Origin: Psammoneis japonica
Lineage: Eukaryota
Assembly: GCA_008632985.1 (NCBI GenBank)
Contig: QPGO01000002.1
Coordinates: forward strand, 124,001 to 188,000
Reading direction: 5' to 3'
DNA length: 64,000 nucleotides
This document shows positions 1 to 64,000 of the stretch, piece by piece. Positions within the stretch are counted from its first letter, which is position 1. Each line of letters opens with the position of its first letter. A model generated the notes under the pieces. The model was given only the letters and a program-made list of their open reading frames with translations, had not been told where the DNA came from and made no database searches. Position numbers and translations under genes: made by a program.

Positions 1-3000
1 TCACATGGCACTTCACTTCCAGGAACCCATGCACCATGTCGTCAAGCTCCCCTTCACACTTTTCAAAAGCAACCCACACATTCTTCATCTCCATGCAAAC
101 GGGCATCCTGCCAGAGGGTGTTGCCATTTGCACAATCAATCTGAATTGCCTCCTTGATGCTCTTCAGAATCCAAATGCCAAACTCGTGCTTTGGAAGCCA
201 GCACTTTGACTTGACCTTTGCAATGGAACGCTTGCAAGTTCTCACAACATGAGGACCCACCAAGCAAACGCCGCCTCCTTTGAGATCCTGCGTTGAATGG
301 CAAACTTGGCAACTTGCACAAGAAAGCTCTCTTTGGTGTCCTTCAAGTCAACCCATGTTGTGCTTCTGTCCTTCCATTGGAGCACAAGTTCCCATCCTTT
401 GGTGGACTTGCACCCTTTCCCAATGCCCTCCTCAGTCTTGAAGAACATGGATTGTGGAATGTCCCCATTTGCACAGAAATCTGCCATCTTGTCAAATGGG
501 AGGTGCCGGTTCCCAACCTTGGCAATCTGTGCAAACACTCTCATGGCAATGGAGTCAGCTGAGAGCACAGTGCAATGCCCATCAGGGTGCTCTGCCTCAT
601 GCATCCTTGTGTCAAGGATGGGATTGCCATTGTCATCTCTCAACCTCTTTGTGACACAAGCAAAACTCAGGGCCATCATCATCTCTTGATGGAAGTGCAA
701 CTTCCATGTTGAGACATCCCCAGTCAGCTGCCTCCAGCATTGATGCTGATGTCACAAGTCTTTGTGTGGTCTTCTTGAGTGTGTTTGCCACTTGCTTGAG
801 CCTGATGCACCATTGTTTGCTTGAGTCAGCAGTCAGCGGCCAACACATTGCCATGCCTCTCCTCAGACATGAAAGTCTTTTGGAGCACTGAGTCTTTCTT
901 GTCCTTCGCCAATCGTCTCCATGGCAGAGATCTGGGCTTCCAATGTGGAGATCTGGACTTCCGACTCTGCTCCCACATTGACAGTCTTGAGCTCAATGGT
1001 CTGTGGATTTCAAGGTTGTTGGGAGGTCATCTGGATCTTTGGGCATTTGTGCAAGTCCTGCTCTGTGGGAGTGCAGGTTGTCACAATGCAACAATGTTGG
1101 CCCCCATGGCTTCAAGTGGCACAATGAATGACTTGTCCTCCACAAGGATGATGTGCAGTGGCAAGTCAGAACAGGGATTGTCCTGGACCTTGACACCAAG
1201 ATGCCACAGCTGCTTTATGCCAACCAACAAGTTCTCCATGGAATCAGGCATCCACAAGCCCTGCGGTTGAAGACCAGAGTGAACGTTGCTCCCAATGTTG
1301 GTGACGTCCAAGCTGTGGCCACTGAAACTGTTGGGACACTCTTGATGGAATCGCACCCCTCATTGAAAGGCAGCACATTGCATTCTTGTCCAGAACAACC
1401 TGAGAAGGTAAAGCTTTGACCAAAAACAGTGGAGTCAGCATGCAAATCCATTTCATGTGTGAGTGATTCATGTGTCAGATGGCACTGCTGAGATGCGTCA
1501 TGTCAAGGCAACAACTGCGTGGATTTTGTTTTTCTGATTGACATGGCTGTCTCCAGCCCCAATGTGGCAACCACAACATGAGGTCCGTGATGTTGCTGAG
1601 CAGGGGATCCAGCTTGGCAGTGTCAACTCTGCTTTCCATTGCACCTTCTGCTGTGACCACCAAATGCATCCCCAGCATTGTGCCCATCTTGAGCATCATG
1701 CCTTGAACTGCCATTGCCAGAATCAGTGTTGATGCTGGTGTTCAAGGCAGAGATTTTACAGCTTGCTTCTTCAACCCTTCAACCACCACAGAGCAAATCT
1801 CCACGGGTGGAGATTTGCTCTGCTCAAGGAATTGTGATGTGTCATGCATTTGCATGACAATGCAGTGCACATGTCATGAAAAGGCACATCATGTGCAATC
1901 TGCGTAAAACACACCACAGGCAATTTTTCAATGCAAGCAAATCTCCACCAGCGGAGATTTGCTCCAAGGGTGTGGCATTTGCTGCTCCATTGTGATTGTG
2001 ACACATCACAAATTTCATTGTCAAAGGTTGAGATTTAGTTCCTCTCTGCACATGGATGAAACATGCAAAAAAACCGGTGCAAAAAAGTCAACATTGAACT
2101 TTCTAAATTGCAAAAATGCCCCCACAGAGCTTTTGTTGAATGCGTGCTCCAAAACAAATTCATGTGGATCAGTTGTTGTTCACATCTGGAAATGCCACAT
2201 TTGTCACATTGGTGACACAAGCAAGCAAATTTCCACCCGTGGAGATTTGCTCAAGTCCGGTGGTTGAAGGGTTGAGGATGGATCATCATTTGTTTAGAGC
2301 TTGCAAATGATTGAAAACAACCTGGATTTGTCACTTTGACAATGCGTGCATTTGCCAAAAAACAACTCATTGACAGGTCAAACTTTGTCTGTTTGCAAGA
2401 CAACATGGGGTTCACATGTGATGGTTGCAACCATGCACGATGTGCAGCTCAATGACTGCAAATGTGTCCATGGCCGGTCAAACCCCAGTTGTTGGCATTT
2501 CCTGGAAAGTTGTGGCTTGTCTGCCACAAACAGTCCAATTTGGGCAGAAAATGGCAGTTTTTTGCATGTGGCAACAGTGGCACATGCAACAATTGACATT
2601 TGAAGGTCAGCGTGTGCAGTTCACACAGAGGTCTGACAGCCCTGATGGGGGCTGGACACACTCAAAAGAAAACAGTGCCAAACAAAAATCCAGCCCCAAG
2701 CTGCAACAACAGCTTCTGATTCTTCTGCATGAGCAACTTGACAGATGCAGTGCAGCGTTTGGGGTTTCTGGGTTGTTTGGCAACACCCAGACTGTTTGTC
2801 CTCCTTGTGGCATCCAGCGTCAATGAATCTGTCTTCATTGCAGATGGTGCCACCCTCCCTTCCTCCTCCAGAGGCAACTGTGGCAATGGCACGACAATGT
2901 GCAATCATCTCTGGAAGAGTGGCAACCTTTGTGGCAAGATGGCCAGCCACCACGGCAAATGTGATGCCTCCTCCAAACTTGTTGTGTGCCTTCAAGGTTT

Positions 3001-4322
3001 CAACTGCGGCTTGCAGTTGTTGGTGCTGCGTCTTCTCAAAAAGGATGCACAATTTCTGGGCCTCTGTCTTTGGCTCATCATTCTCTTCAAAGACATCAAA
3101 CATTTCTTGAAGTTTGTCAATGAATGACTCAAAAGGCACAGCGCGCTCACTCCTGCAGTGGGGAGCATGCTTGGCTTCAGAGATGCAATGGAAGGTGTTT
3201 CCTTCTCCCTGGCAGTGATTGCACAATGCCCTGAAGTCCACTTGTCCGTTCTGCTCATCCTTGTGGTCTTTCAACCACTGTTCACTCGGTGTCCCCACAG
3301 CAAGGGGTTCAATCAACAAGTGAGCTGCATGAGTGTCTGCTTCAAAAACAGAACCTTTAAGAGGTGCACATGCAATGCACTTCTGGACAAAAGTGTTGTG
3401 ACCTTCAGGTTAAGGCTCATCATTGTGACAAGTGCAACGCACCAACGGCACCCCAGAGACCCCCAGCATGATGCCAAGCATGTTTGTCAAACCAGTGCAC
3501 CACTCAACCCAATCCTTCTTGTTCTCTGACATCCCAGGTGATGCCTTTTTGCCAAGAGATTCAGCAGTGGCCTCAGTCTGGGAGCAAATCTCAGCATGAC
3601 TGAGTGCCATCTACAGTGCAGCAGCACAAAGAGTTGCCTGATTGAGCCCATCAAGGGCAGGATCTTCACTCATGTGACCAAAGTCCTGAGCCCAATGGAT
3701 GAGAGCCTTGAGTTGGTGACTGCAGGCCAAACCAAATGAGTGCACCCTTCAGCAACTGCCCTCCCAGCACATGATGATGCAAGAGAGTCAACACCTTCTT
3801 CCTTGAGGTCTTCCAAATCATCGAAAGATGCAAAGTCTGCCACAAGCAAGACTCGTTGAGCTGGATCAACAAATCCGATCCATTCAAGAGCTGTCTTGAT
3901 TGGATCCAGAGGAGCAGCCGCCATGGTGGTGCCTGGACCAGTGGAAAAACAAAGTTGTGTGAGAGATCACATGATGAGATGATGTCTCAATTTTGTGCTG
4001 ATGACAACACATGGCCATTGGAGGCATGGAGATTGACCATGTCATCTTGCTGCTTGTGCACTCACTGATGCCAGGTGATGACAATCATCACACATCCTTC
4101 AATCAACTGGCACTTGTTGTCATGACCCTGCCATCATGGCGTGATTGTTTCTTCGCGGTTGTTCATCGTTTTTGTCAAACTGAGCATGTGAGCAACGGCT
4201 TGGCTCTGACAAAGCAAGCAAATCTGGCTGCTGGACAGGCTCAGCCACTCACAATCTCAGTGTGATGATGAGAGTGCAACCAATGAGATGCTTCTGGGCC
4301 TGTCACAACTGCAATTGCAACA
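1..4322 (-). mobile_element. Degraded Ty1/copia LTR retrotransposon, diatom CoDi-like (gag, protease, part of pol; integrase core apparently deleted; runs off the window start)
   Basis: Gag-like ORF pieces 3924-2621 (MAAAPLDPIKTALEWIGF...; FESFIDKLQEMF). Protease motif DLHADSTVFG (~1450, cf. DSHADT). KQWCIRLKQVANTLKKTTQR (~800). TKGWELVLQWKDRSTTWVDLKDTKES...FAWWV and HEFGIWILKSIKEAIQIDCANGNTLWQDA are typical of the CoDi post-integrase region. Many stops and frameshifts. The 4322 end (TGTT start of a putative LTR) is tentative. Confidence 0.85.
1775..2271. mobile_element. ~500-bp piggyBac-type MITE inserted in the copia element
   Basis: Terminal inverted repeats CCCTTCAACCACC...GGTGGTTGAAGGG, flanked by TCAA (1771-1774) and TTGA (2272-2275), both one transition from the TTAA target site. 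Three copies of the hairpin AGCAAATCTCC-N6-GGAGATTTGCT (~1792, ~1937, ~2224). No coding capacity. Confidence 0.8.
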
Positions 4323-4329
4323 AGAGTGA

Positions 4330-5750
4330 GACTGTTTCTGTGGCTGCAGAGTTTCCCTCCGATGCCACGTCACAGTGCCACCGCCTCAACTGCCATGGCA
4401 CAGCAGACAATCCCTGATGCTCTGGATTTCACTTGCGTGTGTTGCGCACGCGGGAATGGAACAAGAGTGCATGCAGCAGGCAATTTTTCACTTGGTGTGG
4501 GCAGAGCATTTTGATGAACTCGACTCAAGTGCAGCAAGAGTCAACACACCAAAGCAACCCAGATGACAAAGTGTTGGAACGAATGCATGACAACAACTCA
4601 ATTCAATTCAATCCTGGAATTTACACAGCCCTTCCCGACTGCTGCCCATTCCAAGCTTTCAACAATGCCTGACATGCCATTCAATCCACAACCATGAACA
4701 GGGTCAGAGCACACATGCAATGCAAAACAAGTGCAACCCAGCATTTGCAGCTTTGTGGGTGGAAACACTGCACAACTGAAAATCACATTGGATTCTCCCA
4801 ATCAACATCAAATGCAGCAATGACTGTTCTTGCCACTGACACTGCTTTTGTGGCCAATGTCTTTTGCAGTCCTGGTTGTCTGCCAGGGCTGCTTCTGGTC
4901 TGGTGAGCCATCATGCCTGATGGTGGTTGGAGGTGCTGGGGGGTGACCACCAAATTCCCAATTCTTCATCGATGCACCCATCCAAAATGCTGCAATTTTG
5001 CAGAAGTTTTTTGCAGTGCCAGGCAGCAATCACAGCTCAGGATGACTCTGCCATGTGAGATGCTGCACATCAAATGCAAGAGAGAGTGAATTTGCAGAAA
5101 ATCCAACAGATGCCTCCCAGCTCCCCACAACAAGCACTCTGATCACTTTCCCTGCCTGGAGCATGATTGACACTGTGACATTGGTGTGAGCGACCTTCTG
5201 ATGGCAACAGCATCACATCTGCCATTGCTGTCATTTTGTTGAACAAGCTGTCTGTCACAATGTTGGCTGTTCCTGCAATGATTTTTTCAGCAAGTGCAGA
5301 TTCATCAGGTTGCTGTCTGTGTGGCAGGCAGGACCATTTGACAGGGTCAGTGTTGTGCTCAAGTTTCGTCGATGCGCGGCCAGTGGTCATGAGCCTGTTG
5401 CTCCCATTTTGCATCGCTTCAGCTGGAAAAAATCCTGGGCAATTTGTTCTCATGACCATTTAGATGGCAGACTTGTTTCCCTCTGCTGCGCCATTGAGGA
5501 TGTCTTGAGTGGCACTCCACACCCTTGAGTCGTCCCTGACCTCCTTTTGCTTGCTCCTCCTCATCTCGTCCCTGCAGTCTGCCTCGCTCTGCTGTGCTTG
5601 CCAGCCTGGCCAATTCTGCCCAACACCTGGCATTGCAAAGAGTCTCAATCATTTGCGCAACAGTTTCTGTGCTCTTCAACCTGTTGAGAATGAACAAGTT
5701 GAAGTGCGACAGTTGTGAGAAAAGACTCCAGTGAGTGCCCCGCAGCAAAT
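4330..5750 (-). mobile_element. Degraded non-LTR retrotransposon fragment with RNase H-like domain
   Basis: ORF 5459-5070: KIIAGTANIVTDSLF...APGRESDQSACCGELGGI resembles the AVSDGS...PG..DQSAYRSELGG RNase H motif of diatom LINEs. Boundaries approximate. Confidence 0.6.
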
Positions 5751-5761
5751 GTTCTCAGAAT

Positions 5762-6080
5762 GAGTGTTTGCCCATTTTTGGACTTTCTCTCACCTTTCTT
5801 TTCTCATGTGTGCTTTTCCAAGTATGATGAAGCATGTCATGCATTGGCATTGTTGGCAGGAAAACTTTGGCGGCAAAGTGGCATCAGCTGTTGAAGTTGT
5901 GAGATTCGAGCATGAGCAACAGCAAGAAAATTACACAAGGCGTTTTGTCCACATTTGGACTTTATCTTACCTCTCTTTTCATGGACATGCTTGTCAGAGC
6001 AAAATGTGGCATGTAATGTGTTGGTGTTGTTGGTGGGAAAAGGTTTGGCGGCACAATCTAGCATCGGCTGTTGCTGCCGT
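5762..6080. repeat. Diverged two-copy tandem repeat (~175-bp period)
   Basis: ~5762-5900 aligns with ~5938-6080 (TTTGGACTTT..., TTTGGCGGCA..., GCATCRGCTGTTG). Confidence 0.7.
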
Positions 6081-6180: not shown

Positions 6181-6395
6181 AATGTCGTTATGTAACGTAT
6201 AAAACGATGCTTTATGTAGCATAAACTTCGCATATGTAGCTTATAAAGTTATGCTACATTAAGGCAGGGTGAGCAATGAAAAGTCGCGTCATGCAGCTTG
6301 TAAACTTCCCCTATGTAGCACAGAGCTACATAAGGGTGAGCAATTAAAAGTCGCGCTATGTAGCTGTCGTTATGATGTAGCTTTACCCACATGTA
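6181..6395. repeat. Cluster of short (T)ATGTAGC motifs in both orientations, possibly a DNA-transposon subterminal region
   Basis: About 7 ATGTAGC/GCTACAT copies plus duplicated AGGGTGAGCAAT(G/T)AAAAGTCGCG. Abuts the start of the duplicated gene fragment. Confidence 0.5.
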
Positions 6396-6400
6396 TGCGA

Positions 6401-8241
6401 AGTGAATCGAATAACGCAACACCAAGGCCGCTTAATATCGCTCTTCCTCGAAGGTCTCACGAAACCATTTACGCCTGAAGAAAAGGAGCTCTTGGAAATT
6501 ACGTTTGAAGAGAAGCTTACAACAACCTCTCAGGAGGCTGCAGAGACATTTACGAGCGAAGCATCAGCAACGTGCAGCTTGTGAACTATGAACTACTCCT
6601 AGCTGGCGACGGAACGGTTCCATTTATGGATACGGATTGGACAGTAGATGTTCTTTGCAATGGGTGCTCTCCGATTGAACCCATGTGAAACTCTGGAATC
6701 GAAAATAAGACGATCGAATCTGGGAGTGAGAAGAAAAACCTTTTTGATCGCAAGCAGTCTTCTCCCTATCCTGAAGATGCTCTTCACAGGAGAACTGAAG
6801 AAGAATTCAAAATACGATCCACAACATTTTCTGCATCCGATTTTATGCCTCAATTAAATTTCAAGTTCCTTGAAATTGGAATTGACGAGTTCGAAGCAAT
6901 ATCCGAGTTGTATGTGATTGATACGAACGGGGTCGAAGCCGAAATCATCAGAATAGACAATCAGAGCCCTAGTCAGCCAGCCCCGTCGAATTCGCCATCG
7001 AGTTCGCTATCGAGTTTGCCATCGAGTTCGCCTTCGATTTCGCCATCGAGTTCGCCTTCGATTTCAAGCTCCACATCACAGCCAAATAGTCCTGCACCGG
7101 CAGGTTCAACATCGGCTCCTGAAGAGCCCAGCACAGAGCCTCCAACCACGTCTTCGCCCGCAGCAACCCCCACCCCGCCCCCAATTGCACCAAAGACGGG
7201 GCCACCGACTGCAACTCCAACGAAACAGCCCACAAACTCACCAACGCGAAAGCCAAGTCTGCTGCCGACTTTGCAGCCATCACAGAATCCGACTCCGACT
7301 CCTACCGTTGATCCAACACCACCCCCGACTCTCGAACCAACTCTGCCGCCGACTCCAAATCCAACATTGCCTCCCACACCACCGCCATCACGAAACCCCA
7401 CTCCGCCTCCCACCATTAATCCGACGCCACCGCCATCACCGAAACCATCCCTACCTCCTACACCAAATCCAACAACACCTCCCACACCACCACCGTCTCA
7501 AAATCCTACTCCGCCTCCTACAATTAATCCAACACCGCCACCATCACCGAATCCATCTCTACCACCGACGCCATTTCCAACATTGCCACCGATACCGCCA
7601 CCTACCATTAATCCATCACCGCCGCCATCTCCTAATCCATCTCTACCACCGTCGCCGAATGCGACACCGCCACCAGTACTGAACCCAACTCTACCTCCAA
7701 CACCTGATCCGTCGTCGGCAACTCTACCTGCTACAGCTTTACCAGCCTCAGTGTCTCCAACGACCACTCTTGGCGTGCCTTCTTCGGCTCCATCCTCGTC
7801 TTCAGCAGGACCGATTGGAGTACCTAGCTCTTGTGCCATCTTCCTTACCATCTGCAGGCCCAAGTGATGCAGCTACAGAGTAAGGAGCTTTATTTTCAGA
7901 ACGCAACCAGGTGGTACAGGTTATCTTGTCCATTCCGAGCGCGGCGGACAAACTCAATTCGGTACCATGTGACAGAGACGGCCGGTGGTGCCAGTCATCA
8001 GATCAACTACCTCGAGTTCTTTGGATTTATCACTTCCCCCCTTTGACGGTGCCAAGTGATGCGTTTGGGGCTCCTTAATTGGCATTTTTTGCGGTTGGAG
8101 TCTTTTGCGCAGCCGTTCAAGGTACGATTGGTACCACCAGTACGCCATGCCATTTTTCTCTAAAGTCAGGCTAATTCACCCCCATTCAGTTGCATTGACT
8201 ATTAGCACAACACCTGAGGTATCACATCATGGGTCTATGGG
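6401..8241 (+). pseudogene. Internally deleted, frameshifted, inverted partial copy of the giant mucin-like gene at 44.1-55.6 kb
   Basis: 6401-7830 matches the reverse complement of ~55583-53800 with deletions; ~7831-7869 matches ~45328-45290; ~7882-8241 matches ~44426-44071 (C-terminus plus 3' flank). Small indels break the frame. ORF 6845-7867 is near identical to the parent protein. Confidence 0.92.
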
Positions 8242-17696: not shown

Positions 17697-18249
17697 CGTC
17701 TTACTTCCGGCAAAATGTGTGTGTGCGGTGAAGGGGTGAAGATTGAAGATCTTTCGCACATGGTCGCGCCCCGGCTTGGGAGGGCGGATACCAGTAGCTT
17801 CAGGCTCGCATCATTTGACAGTGTGGAGTTCGCGCAGTGTCGCACCGGTAATAAGAGTACGTAGACATGAACACATAGGAACTTGAGCCTATGATGAACA
17901 AGCCATGTGCAGGGGTTCTGAGTCCTGTTGTACAGTTTGGAAGAGCTAACAATGGAACAAACAATCTCTCTAATGTGCTGTCTATCGCACTCTAGATTGC
18001 CAGTAGAGAGAGATAGAGAGAGAGAGAGAGAGAGCATTCTTCCAGGCAAATGCACACGCGTGGACATGTTTTGGTGCACTTGGGATGATGGAGAGTCCTC
18101 AAAATCCACACAAGAAGGGGAGACAACAAATGTGAGCTTGCGCAAATGGCACTGCCATCAAACGAACCAGAAAAACCGAGTTCCACAATTCAGAAAGCCA
18201 CCTCTCTGGTGGGAGCAAATCGACATGGTCGACATTTCCCGTTTTCATT

Positions 18250-21150
18250 TCTTCGGACCATTCCCCCTGTTCACAGACTCAACTGTTCAACAGAAAAATG
18301 GACGCTGCAGACACGCCCACCTGCTCCTTGTCTTCCAACTGATGAAAACGTCATCCATCGAAAGGGCTTTGCGAGAGAGCAGGTCTTTGTCAGGGTTGCA
18401 TTGACCATGCCATGCCCAGCTCATCTTGCGTTTGCAGCAACTGGGCTGATTAAAGGCATGCGAAGCACAGACAGCATCATCCACAATGGCTCCTGGTTGC
18501 AGGCGGTTGGTCAAAACAATGTTTGGGCAGGCCCTGCATGGCGCTGACACCCAAAAGGCAAACATGTCACATGGCTTTTCCAACACCTGATTGGGTCGAT
18601 CGTGAAGCATGTCGAGCTGCTCGACATTCTGACAACGAATCTGATGGAAAGAAGAAAAGAGAACACCGCAAGCACAATGCTGAAACTGCAGAGCATTGCT
18701 TGACAACAAGAACTTGCCCAATCACAGTTGCAAATCTTGGTCTGATCCTCAATTCTGCACTTTGATCTCCCTCTTCTCCAATGGCACACACTCTTCGGTG
18801 TGGGCTGCACTGTCTTCTCTTGTTGGTGTGTTGCAGAAGGCAGGTTGGTGTCAGTGTCATCACTTCCGGGAGCTTTGGGGTTGGAGTCGGGGGTGGGATT
18901 TTTGTGACTGGATGCACACCTGTGATTTCAACTTCAGCAAAAGCTGGGGCTTCTTGATGACGTGTCAACATTGGCGACCTTTGTGTTCAGAGTGTGTTGC
19001 GTGCCGCCAAAGTTTGGGATGGAGTGTTCTTGTCTGTTGTTCAACTTTGCAACTGGCGTCAAGGTGGCGCACCCCATTCCCAGTGCACGAGATGTCAGAA
19101 GAACTTGAATGGCTCCTTCTTGCTTTTTGCACCAGCATTGAAGCCAGTCTTGCAGTTGAAACAATTGCTTCATCCTGGGACACACCATGGTCAATGGCGC
19201 CAACTGCCCAGCCGCTCCAAGATTCATCAAGAGCATTGAAATTGTCACATGCCAGACACCACACCAACCCAATTGGCAGGCCTTGGCTCTGTTGAAGCAC
19301 AATTTTGTGCCACTCTCACCACGGGAGCATCACATGGTGCCGCTGAAGAAAAATGACGTGCAAGCACACAGCGTGAGTCCTTTTGCTTTCAACTTGACCC
19401 AGCAACTTCTGTTCAATCTCACCTTTGATCATCACAGTCCTGTGACTCTCTGGAGTGAGCAAGATTGATGTTGTGTCCTGAAAAGAGAAGAAGCAGGGTT
19501 GTTGGCCACATGCAGCAATGGTGGATTCTTCTGCTGTCAATGCGACAAGCCTCAATCACTCGCCAATTTCATGCATTTGAGCAGAGACGAATTTGCAGCA
19601 TTCATTGTTGAAAACCCAAAGTCCACCAGGCCACTCATTTTCCCACCACAGACACAGCATGACATGGTCACAGTCATCAAACAGGCTCCCAAGAGCTGCA
19701 TCGGCTGCATTTTGAATGACCGCCCTCGCAATGCCAAGCTGGCCATGAGAGCATGCACTGCACTGGGAGGTGAGATTGACTTGGTCGCTGATGAGGTTGC
19801 CAAAGACTGCATCGTGATTGGTTTTGGCATTGATGGCAGTTGAAGAATCAGCTTCATCATCTCTGACAGCCAATGTGCTCTTTGGACAGGCAGTTGCCGC
19901 TGGGTTGTGTCGGCTGCAATCCATCGATTGAAGGACTGGGTTGGCACCAACAGGACACTTGATTGATTCGGTCATCTTTGGTGGACACTCCACCCTCTCC
20001 TGCCTCTTCAAAGAATCTCTGCTCAACGCATTTGACAAGATGAGCAAATTCAATGTTCCAAGCCATGGAGACAGACACTGGGTGAGGTGAAACAAAAGCA
20101 TCATCTCCTCCAAGATTAGAAAACGCACAGCAACATGAATTTAATCTTCGTCTTTGGCGCTGCATTCTTCGTTCGTTTCCTCGACATTGTGGTCCAAAGT
20201 GCTCTCAAGGTGATGGTTCTTGATCGTGTCTTCACCACCACTTGTTGTGTTCCAGCTGCAATCACTCCCACAGCCTGCCCGATTGTTGCTTCTAGCATCC
20301 CAAGCGATTCCCATCCGAAATCTTTGTGATTGTCGTCGCTGTGACTGACGCAGATCCAACGCCACACAGTGCCCCGATCAGGTGGCTGCATTCCACCTGG
20401 ACTTTTGGCAGAGGAAAGAGGCATGTTTGTTGTTTTCTGCCAGAGTGAAGATGCGGGGTCAAACTGCACCTGGTTCCATCTCGAAAGATGTCTGCCCGAC
20501 AGCATCAATCATGACATTTCCTCCGATCTCAGTGTCTTTTTGCCCAACAAAGTTGAGCAACTGGCAACATGCGTGGTCAAATCATGAGACCCTGTTGTTG
20601 GGTCAACGAAAATGGGACGCGTGGCACCCACAAAGCTTTGCATTGACAGCATGCTTTAATGGGAGATGCCGTCAAAGCAAGTTCGCCGCAGCAGCACAAG
20701 CAGCTGACCCATGGCGATTGTGAAATCACACAGAAAGATCCACAGATGTCAAGACGTCAACATTCATTCAACTGGAAGCTGATCTCCACATGATCAGGAT
20801 GGCTCTGGAGCTCTTGCATGCTCGAAACCAATGTGCCAAGCACACGAGTTGCTGGCATCCTGGCTGGACAGAGAGCATGCTGGAAGCATGGAACTTGTTC
20901 AACGAGCCACATGCAGGATGCAGGCTGTCTGAGAAGATCCAGACACAGTCATCTCTGATGATCTTCTGGCAATGGCAAAGCAAGGGTGTCAGGTGGTTTA
21001 GCCAAGAGAGAGATTCCGGACGTAGCAGCAAAGTGATGCCGCCATGTGGTGGGTGGTGAGTGTGATGTCTGATGTGGCTGGACGCTGGCCGATGCAAAAC
21101 AGCGATCACAATGGGAATCTTTTGAAAATGACCCGTGACGTGTGACCCAC
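18250..21150 (+). mobile_element. Heavily mutated non-LTR retrotransposon (post-RT/RNase H/C-terminal region)
   Basis: Fragmentary similarity to LINE ORF2 (LAFAATGL...NNVWAGP; LELLHARNQCAKH, cf. WxxWxxRNxxxH). Nearly TpA-free with many TGA stops. Family assignment tentative. Confidence 0.45.
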
Positions 21151-21559
21151 AAATTGACCATGGACGCCTGTAGAATCTACACGTTTTTGCACTGAAACTG
21201 TTGTGTTCACACAATTTGTGCAAAAACAGACTTGACTGTTGTCGGGTCAGGCGCATTTTTGCAAATGTGTTGAAGAAAAATACGCCTGATCAGAAAACAG
21301 TCAAATCCATTTTCGCAAAGTTAAAATTCACTAAGGACAGACAGACAGACTTGTCATGGCATTGTCCTGCACAATTTCTACGCAATGACTCTACAGCGCG
21401 AAAGATTGCTGTTGCTCTGACAGAAAACGTGTCTTTCCGCACAGCCCCATAAAAAATGTGAATGACTGTCATGTGCGTGTCAACGGAAAGCACGACATGG
21501 ATTTGTTGCCTCACACAGAGACTTTTGGCGAAGTCGTCAGGAGCAAACGAGCAAACGAA

Positions 21560-22660
21560 AAAGCTCTGTGGCCATGGCGCTGAAGATTGTAGCGGCATTC
21601 CAAGTTTGGATTCGAGATGATTACTTTGATTTAACCCAGTGCCGTTTAAATTGTGTCAAAACCAACTTCGCACTTGACGGACACGATTGCCTTCACGCGA
21701 AAATCCGAAAGACGCAAGCACGCACTGTGCCGCGCACTTTCTTCGTCTCACAATCGCAGTTCTGGCAAGAAAGTGAAGCATCGCATCAACAACATCACCA
21801 TGTTGTCTTCTCTTGTCTTTGTGAACGTCGTGGTCAGCATCAGCCATCGTGACTTGATTGGAGTTGTGATTCATCGCAAGAGCGCGTGCGACTGGCTTCA
21901 TGCCGGTCTTTGGTTCGGATGTTGCACGATGCTTCAAGATCTCAACACAGTTGCCATCACGATGTTCTCGGCGGTTCTCTGCATGGCTTACGATGAGTTC
22001 ATGAAACTCATGGACACCTGGTTGCTCATCAAGTGGCAGAGCTTTCCGAGCGCCACTTTCACTCCCATCTGGAGCAAAGTCCATCTCTTCTTTGTCAAGC
22101 TCAAGTCATTCTCACTGAAGCACATGGAGCTTGCTGTCTTCGCATTGAAGGGAATCATCAAGTGTGTGGACTGGACGCGCGTTGCTTCTTTGTTCAAGCG
22201 TGCCGACAAGACAAGCGCCGCCGTCGTCTTGTTCAACGTCTGCCTGGCTTTCAAGAATTTCGATGTCAGTGTGGCCTCGTGGGATTTCTCTTCCGTCTCA
22301 TGTTGGGAGTGGCACTGGCCTTTCTCATTCACATGCACGTGACGGGATCGCATTTACCATCAACCGAGGACGATCTGTCTGGCCATCGCGACGACCATGT
22401 CAAGAAGCCTTGGAAGGAGCCAACGTCCAAATTCAAGAAGGGACAGTGCGTGTGTCATCGCCATTCAAACAAGACGTGGAGAGCAAAGATTTTAAGGGTC
22501 TGTTTTGACGATGACCTTGACCCGCACTACGACGTGAAATTGGGCGATGCACGCGAGAAGCAGACCACCGAGGACCACCTTTCTGACGAGCTCGGCTCAG
22601 GTCACTTTCAGGTTTTTATTGACATCTTTGACGACGATCCGGATTGCAACTTGTTGTGAG
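21560..22660 (+). pseudogene. Mutated ORF relic ending in a Tudor/SH3-like small domain
   Basis: FKKGQCVCHRHSNKTWRAKILRVCFDDDLDPHYDVKLGDAREKQT resembles the diatom (V)HFDD..PYY.(I/V).L.DGREKQT domain. Almost no Tyr; CpG retained. Confidence 0.5.
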
Positions 22661-23399
22661 GTGCTCAATGGGGGGAAGGGACATCGTCAGTGCAATCTTG
22701 TGACGATTTTTCCAACAAGATGTTCGACAGGGGAGGATCGCCGAGTGTCACATGTGGGTGCGGTGTGACGAGTTTGCATGTTGAATTCTTTGTTCAACTC
22801 GGGCTCTCTTTTTCTGAAAAAAAAAAGGCCTTTGCCATCGAGATCAGAGGGTGACCATCTTTGTACTTTTGAATGAGAGTTTGATTGATTGCATTGGGTC
22901 TTGAATTCAAGCTCGCATTGGATGCACATTCAATTCGAGCTGATTCCGAAACATGTCATTGTTTCCGAACAGAGCATGTGAACGAGAACAAGAGATTCAT
23001 GCGGCACTCAAACTCAAATTCGCACCAGCATGAAGGTGGTGCCTTCTTTTTCGAAAGTAGAGGGGCGGTTGCCAAATGGTCGAGAAAGGAAAGTTGAAGT
23101 CGAGGAAACTGTTCAACACGAGAAATTCTAGCTCCCTCTGCAGGAGACGCTTTGCCATTCTAATTCAGTTGGGCAATCTATTTTGGTTTCATTCAATCAA
23201 GTCTTGTACAATAAAAAGATTAAACAAACAAGAAAATTTAATCAACACTTCTCTGTCTTGTCGCAAACTAGATAAAAAGCACTGTTCGTCATTCGTGTCA
23301 CAGCTGGCACTCGCCATCGATCGATGCGCCACTGCCGGCGGACTGGCATGGCGCCCTTTGGACTAGCTGCGGACTTGTCTCTTGTTCAGTGCAGATTGA

Positions 23400-30534: not shown

Positions 30535-30635
30535 TTGTGAATTCACAGCGGAGTGGTTCATCGCAACCATTGGGCAGGAGGCCAGGGGTTCGAAACCCTG
30601 AGTGGGAGTTGTCTGAAGCAACGTTGATCACTGTC

Positions 30636-39339: not shown

Positions 39340-39715
39340 CTGGCATTGGGGCCCTACTACTCTAGATCTGAAACCGTGGTATAGGCAAGAATGAGGATGC
39401 TGCAGTCTACAAAGAATACTCTTCGGTGCATCAAATTAGAAAAGCTTATCACTGGGGAAACTTTGCGCCTCTTTCAGAACAACGACGAGAGAGAATGCTC
39501 TCCGAGGTCCAGACGCTTGCCAAGAATCAGCAGAGGGGCGAACCCATACTGCTGGTCTCATATGGTGGACCAGTGACTCATGTTTATCAGCGTCTTACCG
39601 GCAACAAACAGTCCCTACATGGTGAGAGCATGCTATAGTGTTTACATGCAGGTCGAGGGTGACGAGGATTGGAAACCAATCGTTGTCAACGAGTCGATTT
39701 CGTCCACTTCTGAGA
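39340..39715 (+). pseudogene. Fragment resembling the C-terminal half of a histidine-phosphatase (phosphoglycerate mutase) family gene
   Basis: ERMLSEVQTLAKNQQRGEPILLVSYGGPVTHVY... (cf. ILLVSHGG), continued in another frame by CYSVY....EDWKPIVVNES. Confidence 0.5.
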
Positions 39716-39719
39716 ATCA

Positions 39720-40690
39720 CGGCGCAGCCTGGCGACTTGTTCCAGTTTCGTCAGTTGCGTTCCATGGCTGTCCAGGGTGGAGATGATTTGGAACGTGCCG
39801 CTGGGTACGCCGTTGCGAACGATTTGCTTAGTTCCGAACTCAATCATGTGCACCATCTCAATGGTTTTGCGGATAATGTCTACGCGGAGGCCCTTGTCAC
39901 AGACCATGGTTATGAAATTGTGTTGAAGACTCTGGTCATTTATCGTAATCCCAACACAAGAGCCAAATTGAAAATGGAGTTCGCCACAATGGGTAACATG
40001 AAGATTGTCGAACGCCCGCAGTCTCAAAATATTTGCCCTCTCACTCAGATCGCCCTCCGCGCCTCCATCAAGGTCTCCTCCATGAGACGGGGCACATCTT
40101 TGGAACCACTGCCTACGAAGACGCGGCGACACTAGAGAAGGGATGCATGATTCGACCCACAACTTGTATCGACGAGTTCTTTCGATCCATGTGCGCCCAA
40201 TTTGCATGTGGCCATTCAACCTCGATTCCCATCTTGTTGGATTTCTCAATCACCATTGTCGAGTCGACTAACATGCGTTGCCTCACTCCACACGCCACGT
40301 CGGAAACGGGAAGCTTCCTTGCCGTCAACCGCTACGCAAGAATTTAAAGACGGTGTTCTCGATGCGCTTGTCGATTGTGTCCTGGTTTCGTGTTGGATAT
40401 GGCGTAGCACGCTTGTTCATCAGTAGTGTCTGTTAACACCGGGAGAAAGACACTTCTTGAACTGTTGGCGCCGACAAGGTGCCTTGTGACGCATTCAGCA
40501 CTGTTTTGCGAGTACGAGAGCGTGCCCTGTAGGATCAGTCGTTACGCGTACCTTAAGCGAAATGGTGCATCATGTCTAGTATTGCTGATACAGCTCGAGT
40601 TTCGTAGTCTTGAACCTAACTCTAGTGTGCCTTTGTTGTTTTTGTAGTGTCTTCGGCGAAGACGCCCTCGTTAATGTTACTGGAGGAGAA
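39720..40690 (+). pseudogene. COPB1: Coatomer beta subunit (beta-COP) C-terminal fragment, frameshifted
   Basis: QPGDLFQFRQL, GFADNVYAEA, EFATMGNMKIVERPQ, RASIKVSS, ETGHIFG, IRPTTCIDEFFRSM, STNMRCLTP, SFLAVNRYAR, then SVFGEDALVNV after an acceptor-like TTTTGTAG at 40648. Confidence 0.85.
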
Positions 40691-40744
40691 GCGTGCTCAG
40701 TTGGCCGCGGGGGGGGAACCTTGGACGATGCGGGACCCGTCCCT

Positions 40745-56506: not shown

Positions 56507-56899
56507 GTTGGTGAATAGGGCGTCGTCGCGTTTGTTTGGTCTCAGCTAGTACGGTACGGCGTAGTGGCCATGGGCAAATGAATTACTGTAGTATGTGCGG
56601 CGCCCGCCCGAAACTTCCAAAACCTTTTTCGGAAAATTTTGGCAATCATGTTCATTGCAATGTTGCCCATTGGATATAATGAGGGCAATAAATTCGTGGA
56701 AGTACACAGAATGTCATACTTACAAAATACATGTTGTGACATAAAAGACCTCTAAACCCAACAGATGTCGAAAATGTCAAGACTGGCAGCCGCGCCTCAC
56801 CACTTTCGTTCCCGCCATTTTCAATTTTTTGAAAATTTGCCAAAGAGAAAGCGCAACAAGACGAGGACATGCGCCAGAGAGGGAGAGAGAGCACCCCGA

Positions 56900-58670
56900 A
56901 GCACACTCTGCCTCTGAAGGTGGTGCTGCCCGGGCATGCTGACCCATCACCTCTAGCAGCAGCTCTGTGAGACACCAGACAACTTGCCAACTCAGCAAAA
57001 AAGAACATGAAACACAGCCTGAGAGAGAAAAGAGATGTGACCTCAAAAAGCAGAAGAGGGGCGAGTGTTTGTCATCGCTCTTTTCTTTAAAGATGCTGTG
57101 TGCAGGAGGAGAACAAGCTCTTTTACATGGACTTTAGACTGATGCAGAGCAAAGTTCCAAAACCCACTGCAAAGAGTGAACACCTCAACTGGGAGCAAGG
57201 CACACTTCTGAGGGGGGAGTCCGGAGCTTTTTCTGTCTCCACACTGAAGATGCAGAGAGCTGCTTGTGCCAGCAACAAATCAAACCCCGAAGAAGGAGCT
57301 CTGGAGTGCAGGTGCTCTTGGGCAGAGAAAAGCACACAGCTGAGTCACACTTTTTGTCAGCTGCAGCTTTTTCTGAATGTGCTGGCCTCCAGGTTGAGCT
57401 GCAGCTCTGAACTGGGCTTTTTCCATGTTTGTCGCATGTCTCAACATGTTCTCTCCAAAGCAGCCAAACATGCTGCCAAGTTGGTGTCAACTGGGCAGGG
57501 AGTCGATCCACGCTCTCCACAAAATCCAAAAGAGAAGAGCGAAGGAGAGAGGAAGAGCTTTGGCATGTGTTTGAAAGACCCCCCCCCCCCCCCCCACCTG
57601 TGACATTGAAGAAACTTGCACACATGAGGTGGGAAACATGATTGCTCATGCATTTGAGCATTCCAAGCAGCTGCTGAAGTTGCTGCTGCTGGCAGAGGCA
57701 CCTTGAGAATTTGTTTTTGTGCATGCACACATGCACACCTCCTCGAATGTGTTGAGACAGCCTGCCCAGAGCTGTGCTGTAAACCCAAATCTGGGTTGCC
57801 ACCAGGCCTCACCTGCTTTTAAAGGCAGAACAGCTGTGCTTGAGTGGCCAACACAGGCCACTTGCACTCTGTTTTGCATCACTGCCAGGTGCACTGAGAG
57901 TGTAGATTAGCCTGTTGCTGGGGTTGCAGGGCAGAGGCTGCGTGCAGCACCAAAATGACATGCCCTGTGCATGCGCCAGGCGCTGAAAAAGAAGATGTGT
58001 TACGACTTTGTCATTGTGAAAATTATGAGCTAGTTTAGAGCAGAAAAAGTGGGATCGTGCGAACAGGGAATCTTGCCAAATTCCCATTCGTTTGCATTTG
58101 GATCGCATCAAATCGATCGTGCGTTCGCATTGTGGATCGTGCGAATCAAGCCATCACGCGCCATGCACGAGTGATGTCATCGTGTGGAATCACGCTGCCA
58201 TCGTGGGCCAGACGACGGGTTAGTGTGCTTCACACGGATGCTCTCTTAGCATCCTTCTGGAATTGCCTAAGACCAGAGCCACGCCCTCCTGTGGTCGTGC
58301 TTCCCAGGTGCGTGTTAACAATGCTGCGTTGCCACGCACAAGAGGCTCATGCACGGTCTCGCCGTGTTGTCCAGTGGCGAGGCATGCTGCAGACAGCTTC
58401 TTCTTTTCCTGCAGCTGTGTGGCAGAAGCCATCATTGCACAACTTTGGGTGGGGATCCCATTGTTGTGCAGTTTGACATCTTCTCACTTCTGTTTGCATC
58501 TGGTGGACCATCATGCATTCTGTGCAAAGACATGGCCTTGACATGGATTTTCAACCTCAAGGAGCGCTTTGTCTCCACACTGTTCTTCCACGCAGCCTTT
58601 CATTGTTTTTCTTACAAAACCCAATCCATTTGGAATGTTCTGAACTCATCTTTTCAATTGTTTCGATCAC
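56900..58670. other. TpA-depleted island between two host genes (probable decayed transposon pieces)
   Basis: Very few TpA, with TG/CA excess. Repeated GATCGTGCG motif at 58053-58145. No domain recognised. Confidence 0.5.
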
Positions 58671-60909: not shown

Positions 60910-63900
60910 TGACGAGTTGCGGCCTTTAATGTGCATCTTCTAGCAGCTGTTGTGACAACAGAACATCGTCAGTCATCACTCTGTCAACCCCAATGGCCAC
61001 ATGGTGCCAATGTGGTTTTGGATCGGCTGTTCGAGCACCAGCCGGTCATGTCATGGGGGGTGCACATCAATCTCAAGCACTGTCTCAAGACCCATGATGT
61101 CTCTCGGAGAGGTTGTTGTGAAGGGTCCAGATGACAAATTTGCCATGTTGCTCAAGGTTTGTGGCTGTCTTTTTCTGATTGCACATGGTGTGACTTGGCC
61201 GCAAAGCTCATGATTGCCCGCTCAAATCGCAAAAGCCAGCAGCTTGTTTCTGTCGCCCCCCCCCCCCTCTGCTCAGTGTGCTGCTGGAGCACAAGCTTCA
61301 ACAAGAATGCTGCCATGTCAATCCAAATTTTGACATCATTTGCTCATTCAGGTGCTTGCTTTGCAGCTGTTGATGGTCATGGCCAATGACAACAGCACAC
61401 AATCTGCTCTTGCACCCATGCTTGAGTCGTCTCAGACAAACCAAATTCTCTGTCACCAAGTGAGTTGGGTGGACCATCAATTGCTTTTTTCAGTGTTCTG
61501 CATTTGTCATCTTTTGGTGGCCCCAATGTTTGCACTGGTCCATTGCATTGCACATTTGATGCACCTGTCCAGGCAGAGGTTTCATCAAGCCATGTGACAG
61601 CAACAGAAATGATTTGACTTGTGAGAAGCAGCTCAAGCCATGTGTGCGGCACTGTCAAGGAAGCTCAGGCCGGCAGTCAACTCTGCAGGCTGCTGATTCT
61701 GTCATTTTGAAGGGATGAATGGCACAATGTGCAATCCCTCTGACCTGGCCCCAGCTCTGTTGCTGCAGCAGTTTGCCAACACAGTTGTCACCCGCCCACC
61801 CCAAAAAGCCACAGTGACACAAATTGCATCTGACAAGGATTGCAGCTGCAAATTCTGGCATTGATGAGGGAAAGCTGTTGTTGTGGGGGTCAACAAATTG
61901 AGAAACCTGTTGCTGCCATGATGGTTTGTCAGAACCTCTTTCCAATTGTGGTGCTTTGTCTGTCGCGTGTTTCCATGCTTGACAAGAGAGTGTGACTTGT
62001 CAATGATTGAAATTTTTTGACACGCGTGCTGATTGCATCCACAGATCTTCAACACACACAATTGCCAATTTTGTTTCTCAGTGGTCATTGAGCCACAAAC
62101 AAACAAATCTTTTTTGTTTGTTTTGAGCTACCTGCGTGGCTCATTCTGTCCACATTTCAAACACTTGTCAAGAACAGTTTCTTTTTTTTTTCTTCCACAT
62201 GTCCGATCTCTGCCTTTGTTTTAAGTTGCATGTGTGGCTCACATGAGTGTTCTCTCTGTGTGCTGCAGTTTGCTGGTTCATTCTGTTGTGGCAAAGGGAA
62301 GTGAGCTTGGCAACATGTTTCTGAAAGGCGCACTTGAGCAAGCTTTGCACAGTGCGTCAGTTGACAAGACTTTTGAGACACAGCACCTTGTGACTTTGCT
62401 CTTTGAAAAAGCTGTTCTCATCATTGCAGCAATGGTTTCCAGTGCTTGGAGCCTGGCAGAGAGAACTGCCTGTGCACTTGCCAAGCCCTGGATCAAGGGT
62501 GGCACCAACTGTGCTTGTTGACTCTTGCTGTTGCTCATGCTCTCAACGTCCTTCTGTGCAGCAGATGCTTCCTGGACCATTGCACAGAGTGCTCAGTCTG
62601 CATCATTGACAAACTGCACTTCAATCTGTGCATGCAAAATGATGAAAGTGGGTGTCCAACAGAAGGGTTCTGGCCAGCTGTTGTCATCTGACTGTTGCTG
62701 GCAGCATTTTCTGCAGTTTGGCTCCAATCTTGGAATCATTGGCCACTTGAAAATGCCTCTTTACAGACAACATCAACAAATTGAGTGGTGCTCCAAACTG
62801 GCATGTTCACAGGATCCGATGTCCAACTGCCTGTGGCTCCTCAGGAACTTGCAAGAATTTTTGACACCTGCCAAAACTGCCCCAGGATGGTCCCCTCAAG
62901 TCACAGAGGGTGGTGTTTGGGCCACTGGTTGAAACTTTTGGATGAAAGGACATTGAGCCAATTTGGTTGTTGCAGATGATCATGACAAGCAAGCATTGCC
63001 ACACTTGCTTTTGTTTGTGCATGGAAAACACTGCCAAAGAAGAAAGAGCTTGTGCCTTTCCTTTCATCTTCATCAAACATGTCATCCAAGGCATGGGCAC
63101 CCACACAATGCACTCCACTTTGGACCTGAAAAGCATTTGCTGAAGTGTTGAATGCAAAAGAAACAAAGAAATTGAGTGAAAAGCTTGGATGATGATCAAA
63201 GGCATTGAATGAAGATGGCTTTCTTTGGGACACACACCTTGTGATCACAATGGTGTTCCAACATGCTCTCCAGGCATTTCTTGCACTTGGTGTTGAATGT
63301 TGCCACCACAGCAACCAATCCCATGGTCAACTTGAGTTCTGTTGTGTGCCTGCATTGTGGAAAGAAAAAGAATTGATTTCATGGGTTGTGGGCATTTTTG
63401 TCAAAAATCACAGCAATGGCCATGCGGACGTGGCCCAAAAGCACCATGTTGGGTCACCTGCTGTGTGGCTCATTTTGTCTTCATTTTGAATTTGTGTCAA
63501 GAAAAGCTTCATTTGTTTTTTTGCCTCCATTTGTCAGATCTCTGCTTTTGTTTTTTAGCCACCTGTGTGGCTCATTTTGTTCTCATTTTAAACCTCTCAA
63601 GAACAGCTTTGCTCATTTGTCTCCTTTTCCTTCCATTTTGTCAGCTCTCTGTCTTTGTTTTGCTCTGTCTCTGCTGCACCTGTCCTTTTTTCCTGCTGGA
63701 CGCTGCACAACTCATCCTCCGATCTGACACCCACCAACAACAATGGCATGCCCCTGTCACAATCCACTTTGTTGTCCAGGTCAGACATGCAACAATGACA
63801 AGCAACAACAACAAACATGCTCTCCAAAGACACCCTCATCTCCAGTGCTCTTCTTTCTCCATTTTGGCCCACACCCTGACAATGACTTTGGGAGAAGCAC

Positions 63901-64000
63901 ACCCCCAGTGCTGCAGGAAGAGAAGAGCACTGGGAACAGCAAAAAGAGCAGCTTAGATTTCAACTTGCCAAGGCATGGTCTTTGCATCTCATGAAGTGAG
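60910..64000. other. TpA- and CpG-depleted block, unclassified decayed repeat
   Basis: Only a handful of TpA in 3 kb. Motif ACCTG..TGGCTCATT.TGT....TCAAGAA recurs at ~62130, ~63455 and ~63560. Confidence 0.5.

Follow-up and report, generated by a model that had tools for sequence, protein, structure and literature searches.

The 64,000 nt window analysed here (Psammoneis japonica contig QPGO01000002.1, positions 124,001 to 188,000 of the forward strand; coordinates below count from its first letter) raises the question of why the dinucleotide 5′-TA-3′ (TpA) is almost missing from long blocks of decayed DNA that lie directly beside genes in which it is normally represented. A first interpretation, drawn from the letters of the window and referred to below as the sequence-only reading, had proposed an undescribed genome-defence system that hypermutates TpA to TpG or CpA in transposons. 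In the best reading of the data presented here, dead mobile DNA makes up about half of the window, and nearly all of its TA has been turned into TG or CA. For targeted, post-insertional TpA hypermutation of the depleted blocks as such, leaving its chemistry aside, we estimate a probability of roughly 0.8.

Four blocks of the window have lost almost all TpA

Over the whole window the observed/expected ratio (o/e) of TpA is 0.36, with TG at 1.36, CA at 1.44 and CpG at 0.73. When resolved into 1-kb bins, those at 1–6, 18–21, 25–30, 37–38 and 61–64 kb contain only 0–5 TpA each (o/e 0.00–0.10), whilst gene bins hold 20–70 TpA per kb (o/e 0.27–0.89). The longest runs entirely free of TA measure 1,666 bp (18451–20117) and 1,530 bp (28926–30456), followed by others of 1,331, 1,216 and 1,188 bp. 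For the purposes of this study the depleted blocks are defined as 1–5830, 18014–38306, 56750–58620 and 60941–64000, which sum to 31,054 bp. Base composition predicts 1,877 TA for these blocks, whereas 156 are present (o/e 0.08); in the remaining 32,946 bp, referred to as the gene blocks, there are 1,231 where 2,015 are predicted (o/e 0.61). The sequence-only reading, which had described TpA as nearly absent from the transposon blocks and normal in the genes, with TG and CA in excess, is thereby confirmed, including its estimate of about a dozen TA within positions 1–5,700 (13 in 1–5830).

Upon subdivision, all 10 depleted sub-blocks display a TpA o/e of 0.01–0.20. Values for TG and CA are raised to 1.42–1.94 in these sub-blocks, compared with 1.1–1.2 in the gene blocks; both exceed 1.52 in seven of the ten, with one or both falling below this value in 20701–24600, 24601–25830 and 30425–37240. 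The summed o/e of the four pyrimidine–purine (YpR) dinucleotides is approximately equal in depleted and gene blocks, as is expected if TA and CG convert into TG and CA. Neither ApT, AA nor TT shows depletion, and the GC content of the depleted blocks equals that of the gene blocks, so that GC-biased conversion, or a general bias from AT to GC, is ruled out.

With regard to CpG, its o/e is 0.16–0.48 in six depleted sub-blocks, and near-normal (0.76–0.82) in three that are already poor in TpA. The older parts of the blocks show a slower, separate decay of CpG, which fits deamination of 5-methylcytosine (5mC). The sequence-only reading had cited conversion of CpG to TpG as an established background process, and this is indeed present, although the CpG depletion of the blocks went unmentioned. 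The o/e of TpA itself follows a gradient, descending from 0.15–0.20 in high-copy or young parts to 0.01–0.04 in old, CpG-poor parts.

The four blocks, each of which concerns both strands, are as follows. Block 1 (1..5830) extends past the start of the window and displays a TpA o/e of 0.02–0.04, with CpG at 0.18–0.23 and TG/CA at 1.7–1.9. Block 2 (18014..38306), at 20.3 kb, is a mosaic of sub-blocks differing in age, for which TpA ranges from 0.01 to 0.20 and CpG from 0.16 to 0.82. The third is a small island between two host genes (56754..58624; TpA 0.16, CpG 0.44), whilst block 4 (60941..64000) holds seven TA (TpA 0.03, CpG 0.16) and extends past the window end. Two islets within block 2, at 21000–21650 and 23058–23480, are richer in TA, with 13–14 TA per ~450 bp each. 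The first of these lies at a read depth of 1,400–2,800, and so may be a young high-copy insertion in which mutation is still incomplete.

Conserved tyrosines indicate the direction of change

Homologue searches identified two elements within the depleted DNA. The first, at 2–1454 on the minus strand, is a fragment of a copia-type (RVT_2) polyprotein gene that is ~40 % identical to its relatives, truncated, and marked by an internal deletion. The second, at 30425–37240 and likewise on the minus strand, is a DIRS-like retroelement (reverse transcriptase plus tyrosine recombinase) with a GC content of 0.58, a TpA o/e of 0.20 and a CpG o/e of 0.82. A search with its pol gene (31893–34497, minus strand) gave 230 relatives at E ≤ 1e-3, with identity reaching 63 % for the best of them. 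Relatives of the DIRS type are ~780–820 residues long and possess an RVT_1 domain followed, in their consensus, by a tyrosine-recombinase-like C-terminal motif. The pol frame of 2.6 kb is interrupted by three in-frame stops, only one of which falls within the homologous part, and by one frameshift, suggesting that this copy is young yet disabled.

Codons for tyrosine (Tyr) always contain TA, and conserved Tyr columns therefore provide a test of polarity that does not depend on ancestral DNA. In the copia fragment and the DIRS-like copy taken together, Tyr is kept at only 1 of 15 conserved columns, as opposed to 499 of 720 for other conserved columns (Fisher p 9.5e-7). The 14 lost positions now read Cys (5), His (3), Phe (5) or Ala (1), such that His or Cys accounts for 8/14. 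For the DIRS-like copy alone, Tyr is kept at 1/6 conserved columns, the remainder being three Cys (TGC) and two His (CAC), whilst other residues are kept at 365/483. The corresponding values for the copia fragment are 0/9 (one His, two Cys, five Phe and one Ala) and 134/237. The DIRS-like element has two conserved Tyr in its recombinase motif region (consensus HQRxHRY....DYxPG), neither of which survives: His has replaced one and Cys the other.

The relatives of these elements present a different picture. The copia alignment comprises 29 public proteins, namely 15 relatives and 14 near-identical cluster mates of one relative. Copia-type public proteins consist of 3.1–4.3 % Tyr and keep 70–100 % of 34 conserved Tyr columns, as given for the 25 of 29 rows listed. 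Similarly, the median proportion of conserved Tyr kept by 120 DIRS-type relatives is 83 %. Judged by these proteins, neither the copia nor the DIRS-type family appears to be natively poor in Tyr. A natively Tyr-free ancestry, which the sequence-only reading had named as a possible objection, is thus answered by related elements with normal Tyr.

Repeat pairs record repeated loss of TA

The direct repeats of the DIRS-like element, internal and terminal, allow change to be counted between copies. Their 5′ set (30425–30534, 30636–30774, 30795–30991 and 30991–31129, forward strand) was compared with the 3′ partners (36809–37005 and 37131–37240, forward strand), yielding three repeat pairs with 446 aligned bp and 24 difference events. 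These comprise 11 doublets in which CA stands opposite TG, three instances of TA versus CA, six of CG versus TG or CA, three other transitions and a single transversion. A CA|TG doublet is what remains when a single ancestral YpR that is palindromic has been hit independently in each of the two copies. As 20 CpG are intact in both copies and six have changed in one, decay of CpG predicts only 0.22 such doublets, so that virtually all of the 11 trace back to TA. Expressed per copy, loss amounts to 0.81 for TA and 0.13 for CpG, with other change at 0.0045 per bp. By this estimate, which is a relative one, TA has changed ~370 times faster than other sites and ~12 times faster than CpG. Four TA are common to both repeat copies, and all four lie in CTAG or TTAA.

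A comparable pattern is seen for paralogous copies, which were taken from other copies among Logan contigs of the same read set. Six of the 13 best-supported differences in depleted DNA have CA or TG in the window where TA is found elsewhere, and four more are of the CpG type. Transitions make up 12/13 of these differences, compared with 14/27 in the gene block.

Both strands are hit, with a preference among flanking bases

In all 10 sub-blocks the o/e values of TG and CA are alike, and on coding strands Tyr has become Cys on five occasions (A→G) and His on three (T→C). The presence of both kinds of product indicates that both strands are targeted, which argues against editing of a single-stranded RNA or complementary DNA (cDNA) intermediate.

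The few TA that remain are not a random sample with respect to their neighbours. Relative to the gene blocks, survival is highest for TTAA (0.54), CTAA/TTAG (0.41) and CTAG (0.23), and lowest for ATAT (0), ATAG/CTAT (0.024), GTAC (0.044) and ATAC/GTAT (0.057). These ratios derive from raw 4-mer counts; in a normalised version the first three become 0.59, 0.51 and 0.22, respectively. Among the products, YTGY and YCAY occur 1,957 and 1,457 times in the blocks, as opposed to 1,246 and 1,214 times in the genes (p 4.5e-7), and their ratio exceeds 1 in 10/10 depleted sub-blocks. Eight Tyr codons are informative in this regard, and a pyrimidine before the codon goes with four Cys versus one His. The excess of YTGY, together with the products of the Tyr codons, suggests that A→G is favoured in T-A-Y, which is equivalent to T→C in R-T-A. 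A context rule is accordingly moderately supported, whereby TAY/RTA is preferred and YTAR is spared.

Depletion ends at sharp borders and ignores a duplicated host segment

At six of six borders the density of TA switches within 50–450 bp. The right border of block 1 lies between a TA at 5823 and the next at 5932. Ahead of the border at 18014 there is a TA every 10–40 bp, and then none until 18451; similarly, the dense TA before 60941 gives way to a stretch with none until 62129. On either side of the small island stands the 8-bp direct repeat AAACCCAA (56754–56761 and 58617–58624), and depletion begins and ends there. This repeat is a possible target-site duplication.

An internal control is provided by an inverted duplication of a host-gene segment, in which 6395..8241 (plus strand) corresponds to 55589–53798 and 44435–44071 (minus strand) at 90–99 % identity. 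Numbers of TA in the paired segments are 21/21, 24/23 and 18/16, and there are no CA|TG doublets among 77 differences. That this 1.8-kb duplication is unaffected indicates that duplication alone is not the trigger, unlike in the repeat-induced point mutation (RIP) of fungi. The proteasome, cysteine synthase, desaturase and coatomer C-terminal genes of the window are also normal in TA.

A second control is afforded by coatomer beta, which is present as two pieces on opposite strands, 14 kb apart. The C-terminal part (39584..40723, plus strand) lies in a gene block, has a TpA o/e of 0.56 and keeps 4/5 conserved Tyr. The other piece (24645..25367, minus strand) is a decayed host fragment inside block 2 that covers part of Adaptin_N (residues ~150–470 of relatives), with TpA at 0.09 and CpG at 0.76. 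The open reading frame (ORF) at 24666–25742 (minus strand) is a host coatomer-beta piece and no transposon gene, and where coatomer-beta relatives have a conserved WILGEY it reads LLGEH. DNA that does not belong to an element would therefore also be hit when inside the targeted domain, unless an element carried this piece in. As to the structure of this gene, the C-terminal piece shows a change of frame near 40084–40093, and a gap at 40341–40646 that may be an intron. No coatomer N-terminal part is found upstream of it. This arrangement points to a pseudogene that was rearranged or captured, or else to an inversion introduced during assembly.

Taken with the conserved Tyr, the CA|TG doublets and the paralogue differences, these observations bear out the sequence-only reading in its central claim, namely a targeted T:A→C:G change at TpA that acts on both strands and spares neighbouring genes.

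The host segment at 6395–8241 duplicates, in inverted orientation, the two ends of a region that holds giant repeat genes, and its 392-aa ORF (6689–7864) copies part of an ORF of 2,749 aa. The latter (47693–55939, minus strand) and a second very long ORF of 1,201 aa (44268–47870, minus strand) are built of diverged tandem repeats, with units that are 65–83 % identical. Both have PT-repeat matches, and the 1,201-aa ORF also contains an F5/8 type C (discoidin) domain; by these features the two proteins are probably secreted or located at the cell surface. GC skew is strongly positive over 44–56 kb.

Reads reproduce the TA-free sequence

The sequence was compared with Logan contigs from two runs of one sample over the region 12001–32000. 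Contigs of run X1, which are composed of exact 31-mers at a k-mer depth of 50–90, reproduce the TA-free single-copy stretches, with matches of 2,114 bp (six differences), 791 bp (one difference) and 777 bp (three differences). Exact 31-mers at such a depth imply that the reads, for which no platform is recorded, are accurate, a property deduced here from the contigs.

Most of the depleted DNA escapes routine annotation

Whilst two elements could be recognised by homologue searches, domain searches recover very little. Amongst 147 ORFs of at least 90 aa from 1–38.5 kb, Pfam at E ≤ 1e-3 returned only Proteasome and PALP, and no transposable element (TE) domain. At E ≤ 0.5, with 55 selected ORFs, there was one weak RVT_1 match (E 0.12), to the DIRS-like element, and nothing credible for the other depleted DNA. 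That Pfam misses these TE domains would be explained by the depleted DNA being too altered for routine annotation.

Read depth adds a further distinction. The k-mer depth in Logan contigs is 450–2,800 across 20.7–24.7 kb, and 60–130 across 18.0–20.7 and 26.0–28.7 kb. On this basis 20.7–24.7 kb and 30.0–31.3 kb are high-copy families, whilst 18.0–20.7 and 26.0–28.7 kb, being at single-copy depth, appear to be old relics. At 30010–30676 the summed k-mer depth reaches ~43,700, as opposed to 60–220 for single-copy DNA, which suggests that the outer terminal region of the DIRS-like element is a very abundant repeat.

The element labels given in the sequence-only reading fared unevenly. Those of copia and of a tyrosine-recombinase element stand by homology, whereas LINE (long interspersed nuclear element), CRE and MITE (miniature inverted-repeat transposable element) find no support in Pfam, homologue or Atlas comparisons. 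Specifically, the ‘LINE’ ORF at 5073–5459 (minus strand) is without a Pfam match. For the ‘CRE’ ORF at 28345–29133 (plus strand), a homologue search restricted to longer proteins gave nothing, and the best Atlas score, 0.77, is uninformative. At the ‘MITE’ site, several copies of a ~30-bp palindromic motif (core GCAAATCTCCACGGGTGGAGATTTGC), facing either way, lie within 1700–2650 and generate the inverted repeat 1768–1824/2220–2278; comparison of this repeat was uninformative. The peptide strings that had been quoted as showing His or Cys in place of Tyr are all present, at 575–607 (minus), 5118–5141 (minus), 29594–29611 (plus) and 29200–29211 (plus). With respect to the Tyr expected in them, the first Tyr of RMYEVEY reaches the conservation threshold, and the others are below it.

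A proposed mechanism and its rivals

In the mechanism that we propose, the depleted blocks would be composed of dead mobile-element DNA and at least one piece of a host pseudogene. After the copies had formed, a targeted process would have turned 5′-TA-3′ into TG or CA (T:A→C:G) on both strands, at a rate two to three orders of magnitude above ordinary substitution, and would stop no more than 50–450 bp from the edge of the inserted DNA. It would act in place on chromosomal double-stranded DNA, and a silencing signal would direct it to DNA that is silenced or foreign, rather than to DNA that is merely repeated. Action on duplex DNA under silencing guidance is suggested by borders that are sharp, by the lack of response to duplication and by an association with CpG decay, which itself suggests methylation.

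As to the chemistry, deamination of adenine to hypoxanthine by an enzyme of the TadA/ADAT2 type is a candidate to which we give somewhat less than even odds. The natural tRNA target of TadA/ADAT-type enzymes is A34 following U33, with C35 coming next in bacterial tRNA-Arg. This U33-A34-C35 context resembles the T-A-Y motif, and so fits adenine deamination. TpA is, however, its own complement, and sequence alone therefore cannot separate a route via adenine from one via thymine. In the latter, the thymine of TpA in silenced DNA would be modified enzymatically, for example by TET/JBP to 5-hydroxymethyluracil (5hmU) or 5-formyluracil, and would then mispair with G or be mis-repaired, leading to T→C. 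Such a route deserves serious attention, yet on balance we consider it unlikely. Its outcome in sequence would be identical, as T→C at R-T-A and A→G at T-A-Y cannot be told apart, and 5-formyluracil is mutagenic towards T→C; 5hmU itself, however, pairs normally with A. In dinoflagellates, a TET/JBP enzyme is reported to make 5hmU, which helps to silence transposons and prefers TA and TC (PMC11572971). No corresponding effect on TpC is visible in the window, where TC has an o/e of 1.09 overall, and the authors of a study of Bigelowiella natans, to which we return below, favour adenine deamination, albeit without proof (10.64898/2026.01.13.699255). The probability that the adenine and thymine routes leave over belongs to something unforeseen.

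The remaining alternatives place the change outside the chromosome, or deny it altogether. Editing of the elements before integration, as RNA or cDNA and in an ADAR- or APOBEC-like manner, would make the chromosome a mere store of mutated copies, and would explain why depletion ends at element ends, with sharp borders and one possible target-site duplication. Both identified elements are, moreover, retroelements, and a nearly open pol frame that has lost 5/6 conserved Tyr fits a single burst of editing. We nevertheless regard this as improbable. Editing of one strand should give mainly TG or mainly CA, whereas the two are equal in 10/10 sub-blocks and coding-strand Tyr became both Cys (5) and His (3); the host coatomer pseudogene piece is likewise depleted; and depletion deepens with age, from a TpA o/e of 0.15–0.20 to one of 0.01–0.04. 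In B. natans, according to the main text of that preprint, silent single-copy DNA of the chromosomes acquires the signature where it lies (10.64898/2026.01.13.699255). An artefact of sequencing, base-calling or polishing, in which modified bases of heterochromatin are misread and the real DNA has TA, is scarcely credible. Modified bases do cause systematic transition errors in nanopore consensus, and the effect is found only in regions for which CpG decay makes methylation probable. The X1 contigs, though, reproduce the TA-free stretches, so that this concern, which the sequence-only reading had also raised, is largely refuted by contigs of accurate reads that carry the same sequence; paralogous contigs differ by TA versus CA/TG, as in real divergence, and the frames are broken by stops, a frameshift and deletions as well. 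Equally remote is a native composition, by which these families would avoid TpA/UpA for reasons of RNA stability, codon usage or foreign origin. Whilst TpA is mildly low everywhere (0.61 in the gene blocks), as in many genomes, and the DIRS-like family is GC-rich, a working element needs Tyr: relatives have 1–4 % Tyr and keep the conserved ones, as opposed to the copies in the window, which have lost 14/15. Non-coding parts and both strands are affected equally, repeat pairs show independent losses of TA, and unrelated elements are in the same state as a host pseudogene; native composition is thus refuted.

Several points weigh against targeted, post-insertional hypermutation, and account for the probability we retain for other explanations. 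The evidence comes from one 64-kb window, and both enzyme chemistry and targeting are deduced from its sequence. Polarity is derived indirectly, by way of related proteins, pairs of repeats and a small number of differences between paralogues. The two repeats of a DIRS-type pair may share one RNA or cDNA, such that independent hits do not on their own prove action after integration. In the copia fragment, five of the nine conserved Tyr columns hold Phe (TTY), which is not a product of TA→TG/CA; this may reflect ordinary Tyr/Phe divergence, or a lineage that had swapped Tyr for Phe. The baseline for context is crude, with gene blocks standing in for ancestral elements, and one gene sub-block also has a YTGY/YCAY ratio of 1.32. 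The read set represents a single sample, possibly that of the assembly itself, and covers 12001–32000 only. Finally, identity by homology extends to only ~9 kb of the 31 kb of depleted DNA, the remainder being assigned to mobile DNA from its composition, from frames that are broken and, for a part of it, from a high read depth.

Comparison with known systems

The claim that the process was undescribed does not survive. In a preprint of April 2026, Mettrop et al. report TpA-specific hypermutation in mutation-accumulation lines of the rhizarian B. natans, and propose defence by an ADAT2-like adenine deaminase (10.64898/2026.01.13.699255). According to its main text, 231 of 302 nuclear mutations fell within two integrated viral regions, where 230 of the 231 were A→G/T→C and all 230 were at TpA; the rate, ~6e-7 per TpA site per generation, was a thousand-fold over background and was found in only some lines (10.64898/2026.01.13.699255). 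The same text describes 124 TpA-poor clusters, reports that TpA-poor coding sequences are enriched for reverse-transcriptase and DDE domains, and cites a report on ADAT2 of amphioxus (10.64898/2026.01.13.699255). A word search of the main text found neither ‘diatom’, ‘trinucleotide’ nor ‘flanking’ (10.64898/2026.01.13.699255). In a literature search for the same signature in diatoms or elsewhere, with subscription journals outside its scope, this preprint was the only relevant source, the rest dealing with fungal RIP and viral dinucleotide bias.

The likeness, as far as the preprint's main text allows it to be drawn, covers several features. In both cases the changes are confined to TpA and lead to TpG and CpA, windows of depletion form clusters with raised CpA+TpG, foreign targets include reverse-transcriptase and DDE sequences, and single-copy DNA can be a target. 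As to the rate over background, ~1000-fold was measured in B. natans, whilst the repeat pairs of the window give a relative estimate of ~370-fold per TA site. Differences lie in the kind of evidence, with mutation-accumulation lines on the one side and inference from one 64-kb stretch on the other, and in the targets. Those of B. natans are mainly giant-virus and virophage insertions, which are unsaturated (TpA rho 0.45), whilst those of the window are retroelements and unidentified repeats with an o/e of 0.01–0.2. In addition, decay of CpG accompanies TpA loss in the window, which sets it apart from the B. natans case as presented in that text. By this analogy, the process in the window would be of the same kind as the TpA-only hypermutation of B. 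natans, and it looks like a second, more saturated and transposon-wide case.

Judged from its own genes, the host probably belongs to a lineage other than that of B. natans. Genes of B. natans are intron-rich, whereas the host ORFs of the window are long and uninterrupted, and a presequence is found on cysteine synthase. This protein (PALP; 16614–17696, minus strand) begins with an N-terminal signal peptide, after which Phe follows an Ala-rich, cleavage-like site (...ALSCA|FTP...), a pattern that we take to be plastid targeting in algae with red-derived complex plastids, and the only hint of a diatom host that the genes of the window offer. An Atlas comparison of the cysteine synthase returned clusters spread broadly over eukaryotes, and five host protein models had no exact match in the protein collection searched.

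In common with the window, RIP, a genome defence of ascomycetes, introduces dinucleotide-dependent transitions throughout mobile DNA, giving rise to blocks with a skewed dinucleotide content and broken frames beside normal genes. It turns CpA into TpA, however, and so raises TpA, which is the exact reverse of the window, where TpA has an o/e of 0.08 and TG/CA stand at 1.4–2.0. It is also triggered by duplication, whereas here a host duplication of 90–99 % identity was spared and relics that are apparently single-copy were saturated. RIP requires the DNMT-like protein RID. RID-like DNMT4 genes, to which no function has so far been assigned, are present in many diatoms (PMC9998398); the cytosine methyltransferase fold of DNMT4 gives no obvious account of changes at A:T, and nothing links it to them.

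Decay of CpG through 5mC resembles the process described here in yielding TpG and CpA and in being limited to silenced DNA. It cannot remove TpA, the loss of which is ~12 times faster than that of CpG and precedes it, with TpA already at 0.09–0.20 where CpG is still at 0.76–0.82. Decay of the 5mC type is found as a second process in six sub-blocks (CpG o/e 0.16–0.48), from which methylation itself is presumed.

Editing by ADAR and APOBEC, and the engineered TadA base editors, share with the adenine deamination proposed for the window the use of a deaminase, and both ADAR and APOBEC hypermutate selfish nucleic acids. According to work cited in the main text of the B. natans preprint, ADAR prefers U on the 5′ side (10.64898/2026.01.13.699255). 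Acting on double-stranded RNA and single-stranded DNA, respectively, ADAR and APOBEC leave strand-biased footprints, of which the window has none. The natural site of TadA, U-A-C, resembles the TAY bias. To our knowledge, no natural enzyme has been demonstrated to deaminate adenine in chromosomal DNA as a defence.

Implications

If this reading is true, TpA-erasing hypermutation would extend beyond a single chlorarachniophyte strain and would offer microbial eukaryotes a general means of killing mobile DNA, a mirror image of RIP. The window extends what the main text of the B. natans preprint describes in several respects: saturation is near-complete across unrelated retroelements, a rule by which TAY is hit and YTAR spared constrains the enzyme, borders coincide with inserted DNA, and there is a built-in control against duplication as the trigger. 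There are practical consequences too, since hypermutated elements escape Pfam and homology searches, and models of mutation rate and base composition are affected. For those seeking a DNA adenine deaminase of natural origin, or a mutagenic thymine modification, the window points to an organism in which the process has run to completion.

A broader proposal is that the window's algal host, probably heterokont or diatom-like, and the rhizarian Bigelowiella share a defence that is like RIP but chemically reversed, in which a natural deaminase acting on adenine at T-A-Y in chromosomal double-stranded DNA would be guided with single-base precision by homology or small RNA to silenced mobile DNA, without duplication as the trigger. 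Such an immune system would be either ancient or repeatedly evolved within the SAR supergroup (stramenopiles, alveolates and rhizarians). We advance this tentatively, holding it to be doubtful, if far from implausible. Should a defence of this breadth exist, transposons in these organisms would be driven to the complete loss of Tyr codons and of TAA and TAG stops, and the responsible enzyme would be nature's equivalent of the engineered adenine base editors.

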